This document shows, in pieces, positions 1,666-6,456 of a stretch of DNA of 20,000 bases. This DNA is from an uncultured virus (IMG/VR IMGVR_UViG_3300022074_000023) (Duplodnaviria > Heunggongvirae > Uroviricota > Caudoviricetes), in IMG/VR virus record IMGVR_UViG_3300022074_000023. One strand, written 5' to 3'. The notes under the pieces are model-generated. The model saw only the letters and a program-made list of their open reading frames with translations. It was not told where the DNA came from and searched no databases. The number at the start of each line of letters is the position of its first letter. The first letter of the stretch is position 1. A program made the translations under genes and the position numbers.

Positions 1666-1820
1666 AACCAGACGAAAAGAGAGAGTTCTACAAAGGACTT
1701 CGAGAGCGTATCAAACAACTCAGAATGGAGCATTTGTTTGAAGAACCATGTTCTTTATATGAACCTGAGTGGAATGATGATGATGAGGAACCCGATCAAT
1801 TCATAGGAGAAAACATATGA
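1662..1820 (+). CDS. hypothetical protein (52 aa, not in ORF track)
   Basis: MKPDEKREFYKGLRERIKQLRMEHLFEEPCSLYEPEWNDDDEEPDQFIGENI*, with ATGA overlaps at both ends. Confidence 0.7.
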   Translation: MKPDEKREFYKGLRERIKQLRMEHLFEEPCSLYEPEWNDDDEEPDQFIGENI

Positions 1821-2023
1821 ATTTTACGCTATTGTTATGTCTGTCTCCACTAGTCATTATCTACATAGTAATGAAATTTGCTGTGTGGTTATCTGCCGTA
1901 AACACCGAATCAAGTTATGTCAGAAAAGAACCTTCCAGAAAAAGAGGACCCTTCGTGGAGAATGCATATGCAGACGTTGATGAGGAGGAAGAGGAGTATG
2001 GAGATCGCACAGATTATCGATAA
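1817..2023 (+). CDS. small hypothetical membrane protein
   Basis: 68 aa, SD AGGAG, N-terminal TM segment, acidic tail. Confidence 0.75.
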   Translation: MNFTLLLCLSPLVIIYIVMKFAVWLSAVNTESSYVRKEPSRKRGPFVENAYADVDEEEEEYGDRTDYR

Positions 2024-2132
2024 TGCAATTCAAGAATATTATGATGAGAAGGGTCAACCAGTTCCTCAATGGAAAATGAAACATGATCCTGATTGGTGGA
2101 TAGAATATCTTCGTGAATTGGAGGAACAATGA
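1998..2132 (+). CDS. hypothetical protein (44 aa)
   Basis: MEIAQIIDNAIQEYYDEKGQPVPQWKMKHDPDWWIEYLRELEEQ*. Purine-rich SD-like sequence before ATG 1998; ATGA overlap with next gene. Confidence 0.65.
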   Translation: MEIAQIIDNAIQEYYDEKGQPVPQWKMKHDPDWWIEYLRELEEQ

Positions 2133-2212
2133 GTTTATTATTCATATTTGTTTTTATGACATTATTGATGGCAGGAATGCAACTTACATGGCCAGGGAGG
2201 TATAGAGGATGA
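2129..2212 (+). CDS. very small hydrophobic peptide (27 aa, not in ORF track)
   Basis: MSLLFIFVFMTLLMAGMQLTWPGRYRG*. SD GGAGG upstream; ATGA overlaps at both ends. Confidence 0.6.
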   Translation: MSLLFIFVFMTLLMAGMQLTWPGRYRG

Positions 2213-2370
2213 TTCATTCAGCAGCACACTTTTCTGCATGGGTATTGAACACCTGGTGGACAATGGCAATTATGGGATGGTCACTGGTATTTGTTCCAAT
2301 TCTTGGAATGTGGGCAGTTCACAAATATGGATGGGAACATTGGGAACCATTTGCCAAACACCACAAATAG
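2209..2370 (+). CDS. small Trp/His-rich membrane protein (53 aa, not in ORF track)
   Basis: MIHSAAHFSAWVLNTWWTMAIMGWSLVFVPILGMWAVHKYGWEHWEPFAKHHK*. SD GGAGG upstream. Confidence 0.65.
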   Translation: MIHSAAHFSAWVLNTWWTMAIMGWSLVFVPILGMWAVHKYGWEHWEPFAKHHK

Positions 2371-2379
2371 TGCTATACT
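2351..2379 (+). promoter_or_regulatory. sigma70-like promoter with extended -10
   Basis: TTGCCA (2351-2356), 17 nt, TATACT (2374-2379), with TG at 2371-2372. Predicted start ~2385, where a hairpin begins. Confidence 0.65.
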
Positions 2380-2384
2380 TTGAA

Positions 2385-2465
2385 AGTTGAGAAGAACACC
2401 ACCCACCCTTCTCAACTGCGGTGACCCCCTTGGTAGTTCAGGGTTAGCGGCGATAGGAACTACCA
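2385..2465 (+). ncRNA. candidate structured RNA (hairpin + H-type pseudoknot) 5' of tRNA-Pro
   Basis: AGTTGAGAAG(2385-2394)/CTTCTCAACT(2408-2417), 10 bp; TGGTAGTTC(2431-2439)/GAACTACCA(2457-2465), 9 bp; crossing TGACCC(2422-2427)/GGGTTA(2441-2446). Confidence 0.5.
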
Positions 2466-2468
2466 CTT

Positions 2469-2542
2469 CGGGGTGTAGCGCAGTTTGGTAGCGCGGTGCT
2501 TTTGGGAAGCATAGGTCGCAGGTTCAAATCCTGTCTCCCCGA
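2469..2542 (+). tRNA. trnP: tRNA-Pro(UGG)
   Basis: CGGGGTG acceptor (one U-U mismatch), D arm TAGCGCAGTTTGGTAGCGC, anticodon arm GTGCT-TTTGGGA-AGCAT, T arm GCAGG-TTCAAAT-CCTGT; CCA not encoded. Confidence 0.92.
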
Positions 2543-2562
2543 TTCAATTTAATTTAATTGAT

Positions 2563-3255
2563 ATGAAACTGATTGAAGGAAAAGTAAAGACTGTTTATTC
2601 TACAGAAAGTGCTGATCAGGTATTGATTGAATATCACGATAAAGTCACTGCAGGAAATGGTGAGAAAGAAGACTATCCTGTAGGTAAAGGATCTTTATGT
2701 TGCCAGATAGCATCAATTTTATTTGAAAAGTTGCAGGAACTTGGTGTTCGCAATCACTACATTAGGCAGATTGGTCCTAATAAAATGTTATGTAAAAAAG
2801 TTGATATTATCCCTTTGGAAGTAATCTGTAGAAATAGAGCAGCAGGTTCCATTGTTAGGACTACAACTATCACTGAAGGTCAACCAATTATTCCTGCAAT
2901 TGTTGAGTTTTTCTTGAAAGATGATTCAAAGCATGATCCTCTTCTTACCAGGGATAGGGTAAGACTGATGGGTATTGATCCTACTCCTCTTGTAGAACAG
3001 GCATCAATGATAAACGAATATCTTTTGAACATCTTTAACATGATGGGATATGATCTTGTAGATTTTAAGATTGAGTTTGGTATTGATAATCATGGTGATT
3101 TATTTCTAGCTGATGAAATTTCACCAGACTCAATGAGATTGTGGGATAAAGTCAATCGAGATAGATTTGATAAAGACTTGTTTAGGAATGATGAAGGTGA
3201 TATTGTTCCAGCATATCAAAAGATATTGAACTCATTGCAACGTCGATTCGTTTAA
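2563..3255 (+). CDS. purC: phosphoribosylaminoimidazole-succinocarboxamide (SAICAR) synthase
   Basis: 230 aa: EGKVK, DKVTAGNG, IIPLEVICRNRAAGS, EFFLKDDSKHDP, LVDFKIEFG, LADEISPDSMRLWD, FDKDLFR. Confidence 0.96.
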   Translation: MKLIEGKVKTVYSTESADQVLIEYHDKVTAGNGEKEDYPVGKGSLCCQIASILFEKLQELGVRNHYIRQIGPNKMLCKKVDIIPLEVICRNRAAGSIVRTTTITEGQPIIPAIVEFFLKDDSKHDPLLTRDRVRLMGIDPTPLVEQASMINEYLLNIFNMMGYDLVDFKIEFGIDNHGDLFLADEISPDSMRLWDKVNRDRFDKDLFRNDEGDIVPAYQKILNSLQRRFV

Positions 3256-3272
3256 TTATACATACTACAAAG

Positions 3273-3440
3273 ATGGAAATTTACACCGTGGAACAGTGGC
3301 AAGAGAACTGGGAAGAACTGATGGAAAGAGTTGAGAAGGGAGAACATATTGGTGTGACAAACGGAAAAAATACTGCTATAATGATGCCTGCGGATGATGA
3401 ACTCATACGCATGTACAGAGACCACGAAGAAGGTTCCTGA
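3273..3440 (+). CDS. Phd/YefM antitoxin-like small protein (55 aa, not in ORF track)
   Basis: MEIYTVEQWQENWEELMERVEKGEHIGVTNGKNTAIMMPADDELIRMYRDHEEGS*. Pattern resembles the Phd/YefM N-terminal domain (TV.E....L.EL..RV..GE.I.IT..G...A.L.P). The CDS is better supported than the function. Confidence 0.6.
   Translation: MEIYTVEQWQENWEELMERVEKGEHIGVTNGKNTAIMMPADDELIRMYRDHEEGS
3354..3382 (+). promoter_or_regulatory. intragenic sigma70-like promoter for the tRNA pair
   Basis: GTGACA (3354-3359), 17 nt, TATAAT (3377-3382), with extended -10 TG at 3374-3375. Confidence 0.55.
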
Positions 3441-3515
3441 GGGATTGTCGCCTATCGGTTAAGGCCCACTGCTTATAACGGTGTGAACTGGGTTCAACTC
3501 CCAGCAGTCCTACCA
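3441..3515 (+). tRNA. trnI: tRNA-Ile(UAU)
   Basis: Acceptor GGGATTG/CAGTCCT + A + encoded CCA; anticodon arm CACTG-CTTATAA-CGGTG; T arm CTGGG-TTCAACT-CCCAG. Confidence 0.9.
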
Positions 3516-3588
3516 GCAGGTTTAGCAATCTGGTGAATGCAGCAAACTCATAATTTGCCTAAGGTGAGTTCGATCCTCACAACCTGCA
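3516..3588 (+). tRNA. trnM: tRNA with CAU anticodon (elongator Met; Ile2 not excluded)
   Basis: Acceptor GCAGGTT/AACCTGC + A; anticodon arm GCAAA-CTCATAA-TTTGC; T arm GTGAG-TTCGATC-CTCAC. No initiator features (paired 1-72, no three G-C anticodon stem pairs). Confidence 0.88.
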
Positions 3589-3589
3589 C

Positions 3590-3618
3590 TTGACGGTCCG
3601 CCGTCATTCCCTTATAAT
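3590..3618 (+). promoter_or_regulatory. sigma70-like promoter
   Basis: TTGACG (3590-3595), 17 nt, TATAAT (3613-3618). The -35 lies in the hairpin TGACGG-TCCG-CCGTCA. Confidence 0.75.
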
Positions 3619-3640
3619 ACTAAGGTCAACATTCAAAACA

Positions 3641-3859
3641 ATGACACTTACAGACAAATTCAAGAAAGACATTCAAACCCTTCGTGGTGCAGCAAATGGT
3701 GAACTGTTCCTTGATGTAAAGAATCCGAAACTTTTCAAAAAGGTTCGTCGTTATTATGAAAATGAAGGTGTAGTATTCTCTGGTGATCCTCTTGATGATT
3801 ATGAAATTTTGATGGAATATCTTTATAATGATCTTGAAACAGTTGAAGTAAGTTCATGA
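3641..3859 (+). CDS. hypothetical phage protein (72 aa)
   Basis: Start moved to ATG 3641 (MTLTDKFKKD...), downstream of the promoter; ATGA overlap with next gene. Confidence 0.8.
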   Translation: MTLTDKFKKDIQTLRGAANGELFLDVKNPKLFKKVRRYYENEGVVFSGDPLDDYEILMEYLYNDLETVEVSS

Positions 3860-4110: not shown

Positions 4111-4672
4111 AGATCATATCTATGTAAAAGAAAAAGCTGTTGATAGTTCATTCTGTGATATTGCTATTGATTGGCTTGATAATAATCCACTATGGACTAA
4201 TCCAAGTGGATTTTACATTGGATATACGCATCACATTCAGGATACTCAATTTCGATTTATTTTAGATATTGTTCATAAAAATTTTATAACCTATCGGGAT
4301 GAATGCCATCCTTTTCTACAGAAAATGTATTGTGGGTGGGGAATGGAAAGTACTTTTAATTTGCAAAAGTATAAACCAGGACAATCATATAATGCTGAGC
4401 ACATGGAGCATGGAAATGATGAATTAAGTTGTCTTAGAGTTCTTGGGTGGATGGTTTATCTAAATGATGTCAATGACGGTGGAGAAACATACTGGCCTCA
4501 GCAGAAATTTAAAAAATCTGCCAGAAAGGGTGATCTTTTAATTTGGCCTGCTGGTTGGACACACAGTCATTATGGTATTGTATCTAATACACAATACAAA
4601 TATATTCTTACTGGATGGTATTCTTATCATACTTTAATATCTGATGAAGAAAGGCGTGAGATGAACTTCTAA
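4094..4672 (+). CDS. 2OG-Fe(II) oxygenase (prolyl 4-hydroxylase-like)
   Basis: QKY.PGQ.Y..EHME (HxE), WMVYLNDVNDGGET, GDLLIWPAGWTHSH, KYILTGW. Confidence 0.88.
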   Translation: MSYQNKDHIYVKEKAVDSSFCDIAIDWLDNNPLWTNPSGFYIGYTHHIQDTQFRFILDIVHKNFITYRDECHPFLQKMYCGWGMESTFNLQKYKPGQSYNAEHMEHGNDELSCLRVLGWMVYLNDVNDGGETYWPQQKFKKSARKGDLLIWPAGWTHSHYGIVSNTQYKYILTGWYSYHTLISDEERREMNF

Positions 4673-5032: not shown

Positions 5033-5236
5033 ATGGCAACTAAAGGAACTGCAGCAAAATCAGCATCTGGCGCAGCTATGTCCAAATACGATGTTGAAGT
5101 TGAGGGAAGACTTAAAGCACTTGAAGCACAAGCACATTCAAAATGTGATGGCGGTGGAGACACTGCTCGTCTTGCTGCTTTAGAAGCAAAAGTTGATGAT
5201 CTCATTGGCAGACTTAGTAAGCAAATGGATTTTTGA
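5033..5236 (+). CDS. hypothetical small coiled-coil protein
   Basis: 67 aa with internal repeat RLKALEA / RLAALEA and Ala-rich N-terminus. Confidence 0.8.
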   Translation: MATKGTAAKSASGAAMSKYDVEVEGRLKALEAQAHSKCDGGGDTARLAALEAKVDDLIGRLSKQMDF

Positions 5237-5331
5237 GGTTTCTTGCTTTATCCCAAAAGCAAGTGGTGCGGATGGAGGTAACACTCCCGCCCTGTTTCTT
5301 GCTTCAGGTTAAAGAGCAAGTGGCGTGCATG
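5237..5331 (+). ncRNA. structured RNA module C, resembling cyanophage wcaG/manA RNA motifs
   Basis: Two tandem units GTTTCTTGCTT...AGCAAG-TGGYG (5238-5268, 5294-5325) forming CTTGCT/AGCAAG stems, with a central GGAG/CTCC hairpin. Lies upstream of an NAD-dependent epimerase (WcaG-class) gene. Family assignment is from memory, not a CM search. Confidence 0.65.
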
Positions 5332-5342
5332 AAAGACCTTTG

Positions 5343-5371
5343 AGGATGGTTGCATAAACCGTCCTTTTTTT
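5343..5371 (+). terminator. Rho-independent terminator
   Basis: AGGATGGTT(5343-5351)/AACCGTCCT(5357-5365) stem followed by a T run to 5371. Confidence 0.8.
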
Positions 5372-5378
5372 GTATAAT
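5350..5378 (+). promoter_or_regulatory. sigma70-like promoter for the glycan operon, overlapping the terminator
   Basis: TTGCAT (5350-5355), 17 nt, TATAAT (5373-5378), 22 nt before ATG 5401. Confidence 0.7.
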
Positions 5379-5400
5379 ACATACTATACACAATAATTTT

Positions 5401-6456
5401 ATGAATGAATTTCCTATGGAGGTTAAAACAGCATTAGTTTTAGGTGCTGGTGGATTTATTGGAAGTCACATGGTAAAAAGACTTCGTGAAGAAGGATACT
5501 GGGTGCGTGGAGTAGATCTTAAAGATACTGAATTTTCACCCACAGAAGCAAATGAATTTGTAACGGGAGATCTTCGTGATGTAGATTTTGTACGTCGTGT
5601 CCTTAAATTTAAAGGATACGTAGGAAACTTTTACGCATCTGTACCCGAAGAATACATAAGACCTTTTGATGAGATTTATCAGTTTGCTGCTGATATGGGT
5701 GGTGCAGGTTTTGTTTTCACGGGTGATAATGATGCAGAGATCATGCATAATTCTGCTGCCATTAATCTAAACGTGCTAGAATGTCAGCGTAATATGAATG
5801 ATGAGAAGGATGTAAATAATACCAAGATTTTCTATTCCAGTTCTGCTTGTATATACCCAGAGCACAATCAACTTGATCCCAATAATCCAGACTGTCGTGA
5901 AGAATCAGCATACCCAGCAAACCCAGACTCCGAATATGGATGGGAAAAACTCTTTAGCGAAAGACTTTACCTTTCTTATAACAGGAATCACAGTATTCCT
6001 GTTCGTATTGCTCGCTATCACAACATTTTTGGTCCAGAAGGAACCTGGGAAGGTGGAAGAGAGAAAGCGCCAGCTGCAATCTGCCGTAAGGTCTCTTACC
6101 TCCCGGAGCAGGGTGGAGCAATCGAGGTGTGGGGAGATGGCTTACAGACTCGTTCCTTCTTGTTCATTGACGAATGCATTGAAGCAACTCGACGGTTGAT
6201 GGATAGTGACTTTATTGGTCCTGTTAATATTGGTTCCGAAGAAATGGTTACGATCAATGAATTAGTTGATACTGTTGCTAAAGTATCTGGTAAGACTGTT
6301 CATAAAATAAACATTGATGGTCCGACTGGAGTTCGTGGTCGCAACTCTAACAATGACCTTATTCGCGAAGAACTTGGATGGGATTATTTCACAACCCTTG
6401 AAGAGGGTATCAGTAAAACTTACAAGTGGATTAATGATCAAATTAGTAATTCTTGA
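5401..6456 (+). CDS. NAD-dependent epimerase/dehydratase, GDP-mannose 3,5-epimerase-like SDR
   Basis: GAGGFIG, FAADMGGAGF, YSSSACIYP, YGWEK (YxxxK), GGREKAPAAICRK, IEVWGDGLQTRSF, GVRGRNS. Start at 5401 (or 5416). Confidence 0.92.
   Translation: MNEFPMEVKTALVLGAGGFIGSHMVKRLREEGYWVRGVDLKDTEFSPTEANEFVTGDLRDVDFVRRVLKFKGYVGNFYASVPEEYIRPFDEIYQFAADMGGAGFVFTGDNDAEIMHNSAAINLNVLECQRNMNDEKDVNNTKIFYSSSACIYPEHNQLDPNNPDCREESAYPANPDSEYGWEKLFSERLYLSYNRNHSIPVRIARYHNIFGPEGTWEGGREKAPAAICRKVSYLPEQGGAIEVWGDGLQTRSFLFIDECIEATRRLMDSDFIGPVNIGSEEMVTINELVDTVAKVSGKTVHKINIDGPTGVRGRNSNNDLIREELGWDYFTTLEEGISKTYKWINDQISNS

Follow-up and report, generated by a model that had tools for sequence, protein, structure and literature searches.

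Introduction

The transfer RNA (tRNA) cluster of bacteriophage T4 contains two small stable RNAs, species 1 and species 2 (rnaC and rnaD), of 119 and 139 nucleotides (nt), both situated downstream of tRNA-Arg. They are reportedly co-transcribed with the tRNAs and excised by tRNA-processing enzymes, and they have been a puzzle for half a century. In the eukaryotic MALAT1/MEN-beta and mascRNA system, RNase P makes the 3′ end of an upstream long non-coding RNA at a tRNA mimic, and a triple-helical fold protects this end. Here we describe an element of marine cyanophages, consisting of a promoter, a hairpin and a pseudoknot, that stands just ahead of a genuine tRNA in most of its copies. It lies at positions 2351–2468 of a 20,000-nt stretch of DNA, called the window below, from an uncultured virus (IMG/VR record IMGVR_UViG_3300022074_000023; Caudoviricetes).

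Two further kinds of structured phage RNA are relevant. The RNAs of ToxI and other type III antitoxins, including phage pseudo-ToxI, are small and pseudoknotted and neutralise a protein, and some are phage-borne and serve counter-defence; such RNAs form tandem repeats beside a toxin gene, whose product processes them. In phage HK022, the put RNA is encoded a short way behind early promoters; it has two stem-loops but no pseudoknot, and it works in cis, on RNA polymerase.

A large part of the Synechococcus and Prochlorococcus in the ocean is killed by T4-like cyanophages. Just a handful of non-coding RNAs are known from these phages, and the element adds a large family to them (456 copies collected, with at least 120 loci in each of two scans). 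Those known are CfrI, PhotoRC-II, wcaG, manA and the glutamine riboswitch (PMC9964418); the manA and wcaG motifs are also treated in PMC2864571, and about 10,000 candidate structured RNAs have been drawn from IMG/VR (PMC10690425). A full-text literature search found no description of the present motif, nor is there one in the available parts of these three papers. The conserved motif and eight contig identifiers were not found in the readable tables of PMC10690425, whose catalogue may still include the element.

Results

Layout of the element

The window belongs to a T4-like cyanophage, and its top DNA matches are Synechococcus phages. An earlier note, made from the letters of the window alone, had proposed a promoter-defined pseudoknotted RNA upstream of tRNA-Pro and purC, and had recognised no named family in it. 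Promoter, hairpin P1, helices S1 and S2, linker, spacer and tRNA each lie where that note had placed them.

2351–2379, + strand: sigma-70-type promoter, with −35 box TTGCCA at 2351–2356, a 17-nt spacer and extended −10 box TGcTATACT at 2371–2379
2385–2417, + strand: hairpin P1, 5′ end of the RNA; AGTTGAGAAG (2385–2394) pairs with CTTCTCAACT (2408–2417) in a perfect stem of 10 base pairs (bp) with a 13-nt loop
2418–2421, + strand: junction GCGG; C2419 and G2420 pair with G2449 and C2448 as an extension of S1, and G2421 faces G2447
2422–2427, + strand: 5′ strand of pseudoknot helix S1, TGACCC, with its partner at 2441–2446
2428–2431, + strand: loop L1, CCUU, near-invariant; U2431 may instead pair with A2465 and close S2
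2432–2439, + strand: 5′ strand of pseudoknot helix S2, GGTAGTTC, with its partner at 2457–2464
2431–2439, + strand: the same S2 strand including U2431, TGGTAGTTC, with its partner at 2457–2465; S2 crosses S1
2440, + strand: lone unpaired A between S2 and S1, invariant in alignments A1 and A2 but within the search patterns
2441–2446, + strand: 3′ strand of S1, GGGTTA, inside the loop of S2; S1 includes one G-U pair
2447–2456, + strand: linker L3, GCGGCGATAG (GCGGCGAUAG), between S1 and the 3′ strand of S2, strongly conserved; its positions 2 and 3 pair with G2420 and C2419
2457–2465, + strand: 3′ strand of S2, GAACTACCA, covered by covariation alignments A1 and A2
2466–2468, + strand: spacer CUU (CTT) of 3 nt ahead of the tRNA, variable in sequence across the family
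2469–2542, + strand: tRNA-Pro(UGG), 64.5 bits, with no encoded CCA

Collection of copies

BLAST with the 56-nt core found one copy per record in 57 Synechococcus phage records, among them S-SM2, Bellamy, S-SCSM2R, SynMITS9220M01, S-B05, S-H68, RB11-B, S-B43, S-SKS1 and many ACG-2014f isolates. When the S-SKS1 copy was used as query, P-SSM2, P-SSM5 and two single-cell marine virus records were additionally obtained. None of the named phage records has an RNA feature annotated at the element. Pattern scans of IMG/VR, in which the letters of GTTCA, GGAA(C) and most of the linker were prescribed, returned 104, at least 120, 104 and at least 120 loci. In total, 456 copies with 171 unique cores were collected from marine viral contigs and named cyanophages. 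Alignment A1 contains 119 distinct cores, and alignment A2 contains 148 copies drawn at random from 165 distinct full-length copies with a short P1.

A pseudoknot backed by covariation

The element is a robust, previously unnamed structured RNA of marine cyanophages, its pseudoknot being proven by covariation in sequence. Standard pairs fill 99.9% of the cells of the crossing helices in A1 and likewise in A2, while in a control with the 3′ partner slid the pairing cells amount to 12–52% (A1) and 16–50% (A2). Both sides have changed in 12 of 18 pairs in A1 and in 11 of 18 in A2. The covariation score is 0.461 in A1 against a shuffled mean of 0.186, and 0.530 in A2 against 0.182; 0 of 500 shuffles matched the observed score in either alignment. 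On the other hand, the number of double-change pairs in A2 was equalled in 195 of 500 shuffles and thus does not stand out. Single-sequence folding is nested and does not model pseudoknots; for the window it gives −24.5 kcal/mol (z = −1.33), and an equally good fold is reached by 20 of 200 shuffles.

In S1, both-side changes are found in all six pairs in A1 and in five of six in A2, 99.7% of cells pair, and each pair shows three to six pair types in A1. As an example, S1 of SynMITS9220M01 is CAGTTC/GGACTG, as against TGACCC/GGGTTA in the window. In S2, 100% of cells pair and the five outer pairs change on both sides, while the inner GUUC/GAAC, whose letters are fixed by the search patterns, does not vary except for a G-U pair in 18 sequences. 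S1 has 6 bp plus the 2-bp extension, and S2 has 8–10 bp. These crossing helices with compensatory changes in both make an H-type pseudoknot, and the collection of homologs bears out the covariation that the earlier note had wanted checked.

The extension of S1 consists of two pairs. G2420-C2448 is G-C in 115 of the 148 sequences of A2, U-A in 33 and unpaired in none. All 52 unique sequences with the linker GAGGCG carry 5′ CTGCTG (CUGCUG), that is, the switch to U-A. The other pair, C2419-G2449, never varies. With these two pairs, S1 is extended across a G-G (or A-G, C-G) step, and P1 adjoins the stack. The linker had been proposed as unpaired. It is indeed a strongly conserved stretch, variants being GAGGCGATAG, GCGGCTATAG, GCGGCGACAG and GCGGCAATAG, but its second and third positions are paired in this way.

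The unpaired UGCGG, CCUU, A and GCGGCGAYAG are almost invariant, and L1 starts with CC in 169 of 171 unique cores. The near-invariant CCUU parallels the purine run GAA of S2, a geometry that would suit major-groove base triples. A covariance model yields 77.9 bits for the forward and 18.3 bits for the reverse orientation, and this difference, together with the many G-U pairs, fixes the + strand.

Two other readings of these parts were tried and rejected. A sarcin-ricin-loop or GNRA-like mini-hairpin at CGAUAG within the linker is contradicted by the U that 54 of 254 unique sequences carry as first loop nucleotide, and no flanking bulged-G sequence is present. A free, tRNA-like ACCA end, which the earlier note had taken to define the end of the element, is not kept either, as the CCA is base-paired in pairs that covary and occurs in just 64 of 171 unique cores.

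Promoter and hairpin P1

The window promoter scores 10 of 12 with the TG extension, and its predicted start is at about 2385–2386; P1 begins five bases past the −10 box. In the scanned region of the window, promoter-like sites are hardly enriched (9 against 6.6 expected). Across the family, a promoter of at least 9/12 is present in 294 of 337 unique 100-nt upstream regions, compared with 36 of 337 on the reverse complement. Where a promoter is present and P1 can be placed with a stem of at least 4 bp, the −10 box ends 5–7 nt before P1 in 254 of 271 cases; in the remaining 17 the hairpin finder picked a longer stem extending upstream. Together with the 456 copies and the 99.9% pairing, these counts bear out a conserved, promoter-defined, pseudoknotted phage non-coding RNA.

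A P1 stem of at least 5 bp abuts the conserved UGCGG in 324 of 337 unique copies, compared with 137 of 337 shuffled ones. The stem sequences differ between lineages yet stay paired (GTTGA/TCAAC, GTGGT/ACCAC, GTCAG/CTGAC and others), and the loops are frequently GAGA (79) or GAAA (34). No column-wise covariation is given for P1 because MAFFT aligned it inconsistently. P1 was not seen in the S-SM2 and S-B05 copies.

The promoter overlaps a gene. The 53-aa phrog_1184 gene (2209–2370) terminates within it, so that the −35 box overlaps the final codons, and the same overlap is found in SynMITS9220M01 and S-SKS1 (upstream genes of L001 and L112 compared). From this shared arrangement, the phrog_1184 gene, the small-RNA unit and the phrog_552/phrog_481 genes appear to be a conserved backbone that receives tRNAs and purC.

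Distribution of the element

The covariance model finds one copy each in the complete genomes of P-SSM2, S-SKS1, ACG-2014f and S-SM2, and one in the partial record G001, which is nearest to the window. It finds none in Syn9, S-PM2, P-SSM4, P-HM2 and S-RSM4 (0 of 5). S-SM2 also carries a tRNA-Arg(TCT) without the element upstream. The element is thus common to T4-like myoviruses of Synechococcus and Prochlorococcus and to the taxonomically separate S-SKS1 (Llyrvirus).

Cellular genomes were searched in a collection of about 186,000 prokaryote species with a single genome per species (596 billion bases). They gave 42 core-pattern loci against about 35 expected by chance, by our own estimate, and one full model match. 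This match is an 832-bp contig (L264) binned in an Acidimicrobiales metagenome-assembled genome, most likely a mis-binned cyanophage fragment. One copy per genome, patchy presence and absence from cells together indicate that the element is phage-specific, single-copy and accessory.

Search for known RNA families

No Rfam 15 family reached its gathering threshold over 2385–2468 in a search of the whole window, and there was no match on the element alone at E up to 10 or on the element in 20 diverse copies, in keeping with the absence of a named family. At E up to 10 on 1.5 kb, the only match was a weak one to YrlA (RF02553) at 2415–2525, with 21.8 bits against a gathering threshold of 69 (E 0.1). 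YrlA identity was rejected: the match is driven by the tRNA, its counterpart in L109 lies on tRNA-Thr/Ala, and the element alone is unmatched. No Ro-like (rsr) family was found among the neighbouring open reading frames (ORFs) that were scanned.

Neighbours of the element

In 272 of the 456 copies (about 60%), a tRNA follows the element by 0–7 nt, and release by tRNA 5′ processing, as the earlier note had suggested, would therefore be possible in most copies. The neighbour is tRNA-Arg(UCU) in 218 copies and tRNA-Pro(UGG) in 54; 172 copies have no tRNA within 12 nt, and in 12 the record is too short. The spacer is 2–4 nt long in 252 of the 272 (0 nt in 2 copies, 1 in 11, 2 in 99, 3 in 126, 4 in 27, 5 in 5 and 7 in 2). 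The predicted released RNA has about 83 nt in the window and 62–73 nt in most relatives.

Copies without a tRNA are of several kinds. Stand-alone units (L015, L039, L114, L121) consist of promoter, P1, pseudoknot, a hairpin (TGCCAG...CTGGCA) and the next promoter, and they yield no further product. In copies of the S-SKS1 type, the strong promoter that comes next, the equivalent of that at 3590–3618 in the window, starts a few nucleotides past S2. Among the 172 copies without an adjacent tRNA, 29 have a strong promoter within 45 nt.

The window carries a wcaG RNA, three tRNAs, purC and sugar-nucleotide genes. Behind tRNA-Pro the features are as follows.

2563–3255, + strand: purC (SAICAR synthetase; PF01259, E 2e-66)
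3273–3440, + strand: orphan Phd-like antitoxin gene, 55 aa (phrog_375, E 1.3e-9; PF02604, E 0.0038, under the family cut-off)
3441–3589, + strand: tRNA-Ile(UAU) and tRNA-Met(CAU)
3590–3618, + strand: next strong promoter, TTGACG, 17-nt spacer, TATAAT
5234–5334: wcaG RNA (RF01761), 92.7 bits

In RNA-library contigs of relatives, tRNA-Pro is directly followed by the TGCCAG...CTGGCA hairpin and the promoter. In the window, purC, the Phd-like antitoxin gene, tRNA-Ile and tRNA-Met are therefore cargo that was inserted between tRNA-Pro and the 3590 promoter. Scans of the neighbours with Pfam and PHROGs gave purC, the Phd-like antitoxin and proteins of unknown function. PADLOC on 13 neighbouring ORFs gave two 2OG-oxygenase matches only, with no ToxN-like or other defence match.

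The Phd-like orphan of the window has no toxin gene beside it, and S-SM2 has a counterpart at the corresponding place. Bellamy has a similarly annotated antitoxin gene after tRNA-Pro, while a gene of S-SCSM2R annotated as VapB46 was not confirmed by the family scan. Within the Phd-like ORF of the window lies a near-consensus promoter (3354–3382; GTGACA, 17-nt spacer, TATAAT with TG; 11/12), about 58 nt before tRNA-Ile and with no pseudoknot element behind it. The wcaG RNA precedes an NAD-dependent epimerase gene (5350–6456), its customary context in cyanophages.

In ACG-2014f and S-B05, a conserved noncoding stretch of about 210 nt between tRNA-Arg and the next tRNA is a manA RNA (RF01745; 90 and 82 bits; L002 1665–1875, L109 730–940, L276 1–184), so that the order there is pseudoknot RNA, tRNA-Arg, manA RNA, tRNA. 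In P-SSM2 a manA RNA lies about 1 kb upstream of the element copy. The tRNA-Arg behind the element is broken in the D-loop into AT-rich sequence in L016, L043 and L085, and in L207 foreign sequence starts in its anticodon loop; these breaks suggest that a phage tRNA gene has received an insertion, either an intron or a mobile element.

One clade, with the linker GCGGCUAUAG, has the element 15–25 nt before a gene for a 101–118-aa DUF6561 (phrog_431) protein, which is followed by the DNA polymerase gene gp43. The ORFs are at 1575–1886 in L513, 1575–1880 in L514, 1576–1932 in L515 and 1141–1482 in L516, and there are about 13 further partial ORFs. The gap is 15–19 nt in the partial ORFs and 23–25 nt in four of the five longer records. 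The protein has a weak Sm_like match (E 0.019, under the cut-off), and its AlphaFold model (mean pLDDT 46.3) is too poor for a structure search. It is a possible candidate for an RNA-binding partner of the element. No DUF6561 homologue was found in the window.

Discussion

A candidate stable RNA acting in trans

We conceive of the element as a self-contained gene (2351–2468) for a stable small RNA that acts in trans by binding a factor, and give this reading a probability of roughly one half. A strong early promoter of host type (sigma-70) would start the RNA at the first base of P1, and the transcript would fold into P1 and the H-type pseudoknot. RNase P cleaves at the 5′ end of tRNAs. Where a tRNA stands 2–4 nt behind the element, such a cut would release the leader RNA, with a 3′ hydroxyl 2–4 nt past S2. 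Copies without a tRNA would be units alone before a hairpin or the next promoter.

Hairpins with a 5′ triphosphate hinder RNase E and J, and compact 3′ structures stall 3′ exonucleases. With a triphosphate hairpin at its start and its 3′ end tucked into the pseudoknot, the RNA would thus be shielded from host RNases, and it should accumulate. The folded RNA would then bind and sequester or redirect a host or phage protein, as a decoy or sponge in host takeover or counter-defence. A protein-binding decoy of this looser kind seems the most plausible function. What the sequences show is the fold, the promoter, where the element occurs and which genes surround it; that RNase P frees the RNA, that it is stable and that it acts in trans on a partner is what we infer.

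Several features are consistent with such an RNA. If the element served as leader of the genes behind it, a second promoter between them would not be expected, and many cyanophages with tRNAs lack the element, which also weighs against a leader function. Unpaired bases kept invariant, as here, typify a recognition surface. The orphan Phd-like antitoxin gene that shares the gene string of the element, in the window and in S-SM2 and as annotated in Bellamy, may be a hint of the context.

Other observations weigh against it. Many copies without a tRNA lie 15–30 nt before a start codon, as in P-SSM2 ahead of PSSM2_175 and in the clade with the DUF6561 gene and then DNA polymerase; formally the element is there a 5′ untranslated region, which fits a role in cis. 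A U-tract follows S2 in some copies only. Four marine RNA libraries contain the element or its relatives, but as contigs without ends, strand or level; carry-over of DNA is possible, some contigs bridge the promoter, and they prove neither transcription nor its start. The invariance of GTTCA, linker and GGAAC is partly built in, since the search patterns fix those letters, and the P-SSM2 copy, which was found by BLAST, departs at two pattern-fixed positions (GCGGCUAUAG and GAAU). Finally, the covariation tallies count cells rather than independent events and are inflated by kinship; even so, the variety of pair types in the sequences argues for repeated events.

Other readings

The element could instead be a cis-acting 5′ module kept on the primary transcript, where it would block decay by RNase E/J, guide or time RNase P, or modify RNA polymerase like HK022 put. 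Its constant place at the transcript 5′ end, right after the promoter, speaks for this, as does its position in the 272 copies ahead of a tRNA and in those ahead of a start codon, with no clear terminator between the element and the following tRNA or gene. However, in the stand-alone units with a hairpin and/or second strong promoter, downstream genes are independent of the element. It is also missing from the tRNA clusters of the five phages without a copy and from the tRNA-Arg of S-SM2, and occurs once per genome. A simple hairpin would suffice for 5′ protection, which leaves the invariant unpaired nucleotides unexplained. Cyanobacteria reportedly lack Rho, which weakens the antitermination version. 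We therefore hold a cis role to be a serious possibility, though not a probable one.

A bolder form of the decoy would make the element a new class of phage RNA weapon. Expressed early and abundantly, freed by RNase P, and armoured by its 5′ hairpin and triple-helix-like pseudoknot, it would mimic a cellular RNA surface to trap an RNA-directed defence or a toxin nuclease of the host (for example of PIN/VapC type, or another enzyme that cleaves tRNA or rRNA) or to capture a factor of tRNA processing or translation. It would travel with replacement tRNAs and the orphan antitoxin as a counter-defence cassette across unrelated cyanophages. This picture is speculative, and we think it doubtful in its full form.

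Phages are known to make small RNAs that act by base pairing. A single-stranded stretch such as GCGGCGAUAGG or UGCGG could be a seed against host or phage mRNAs, and the element offers both conserved unpaired stretches of 5–10 nt and a strong early promoter. These stretches are, however, inside a compact pseudoknot, and two of the linker bases are already paired; marine picocyanobacteria also reportedly lack a canonical Hfq. A base-pairing RNA is accordingly unlikely.

A ligand-sensing aptamer (riboswitch) over downstream genes, for instance purine genes, is suggested by the likeness of a pseudoknot with invariant junction nucleotides to small riboswitch aptamers, by purC behind the window copy, and by purL and purM annotated near the P-SSM2 copy. 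Across the family, however, the downstream partners have no common theme (tRNA-Arg 218, tRNA-Pro 54, other 172, record too short 12). purC is not a family feature, and the link to purine intermediates that the earlier note had drawn is not supported. There is no expression platform: no terminator-like site was found in 1800–3800 (0 sites), nor an alternative pairing with a ribosome-binding site, and the gap to a tRNA is merely 2–4 nt. No riboswitch model matches. Without a terminator and a common class of downstream gene, the element is not a typical riboswitch, and we give an aptamer little chance.

Self-cleaving ribozymes are common in phage and marine metagenomes, and a small, pseudoknotted, highly conserved RNA at a processing junction could free itself or the tRNA in that way. 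Nevertheless, no Rfam ribozyme family (hammerhead, twister, pistol, hatchet, HDV-like) matched the element alone at E up to 10 or its 20 diverse copies, and the spacer to the tRNA varies in length (0–7 nt) and in sequence, unlike a fixed cleavage site. These two facts make self-cleavage very improbable, and the cut is already explained by RNase P. Neither the ribozyme nor the aptamer that the earlier note had listed as candidates finds support.

As for a conserved DNA site (recombination, integration or protein binding) or mere chance, tRNA genes are common recombination targets and the fold of the window alone is not significant (z −1.33), but compensatory changes in two crossing helices, G-U pairs that on the opposite strand would read as A-C mismatches, a promoter at fixed distance and 77.9 bits forward against 18.3 in reverse leave such a non-RNA reading close to refuted by the sequences.

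Comparison with known systems

The function of the element should be directly testable, since it is carried by the cultivable phages P-SSM2, S-SM2, Bellamy, S-SKS1 and SynMITS9220M01. If it is a true decoy, it would be an RNA-based tool of host takeover or anti-defence in the marine carbon cycle.

Among the described systems, the Y RNA-like YrlA shares with the element a sole likeness, the weak match that rides on the tRNA, and the score is far under 69 bits. The ToxI-type RNAs share small size and a pseudoknot, but the element occurs in single copy, has no tandem repeat and has no toxin or defence neighbour among the 13 ORFs scanned. It is therefore not a ToxI-type array, and these facts contradict a ToxI-type form of the antitoxin-like decoy raised in the earlier note. 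Like put, the element is a structured RNA just downstream of a promoter; it differs in its pseudoknot, in the second promoter or hairpin often found behind it, and in being present once per genome. The manA (RF01745) and wcaG (RF01761) RNAs also are structured and come from T4-like cyanophages, with no ligand or partner known, but they have different folds, and neither model matches the element.

The T4 species 1 and 2 RNAs are small stable RNAs of unknown function in a T4-type tRNA cluster next to tRNA-Arg, and a position beside a tRNA is seen in 272 of the 456 element copies. The element differs in being a 5′ leader of 62–83 nt with its own promoter. When its model was run on the T4 tRNA region (L113), in the model-to-T4 direction only, the best match (E 0.29) was on tRNA-Leu at 4371–4457 and not on rnaC or rnaD, which gives no sign of homology. 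If the element is a true stable RNA released by RNase P, it would provide a comparison for the old puzzle of the T4 RNAs.

It would then also be a parallel, in a bacterial virus, to the 3′ end formation of MALAT1-mascRNA. The likeness lies in the 3′ strand of S2, which ends 2–4 nt before the tRNA and is locked in the pseudoknot. The differences are that a phage RNA here precedes a genuine tRNA, instead of a eukaryotic long non-coding RNA preceding a tRNA mimic, and that the triples of CCUU over GAA/UUC are putative. By this analysis, the T4 species 1 and 2 RNAs and MALAT1-mascRNA appear to be the nearest systems in working principle, and neither appears to be a relative. The element is a new RNA family, and its kind would be that of small stable RNAs cut from the transcription units of tRNAs.

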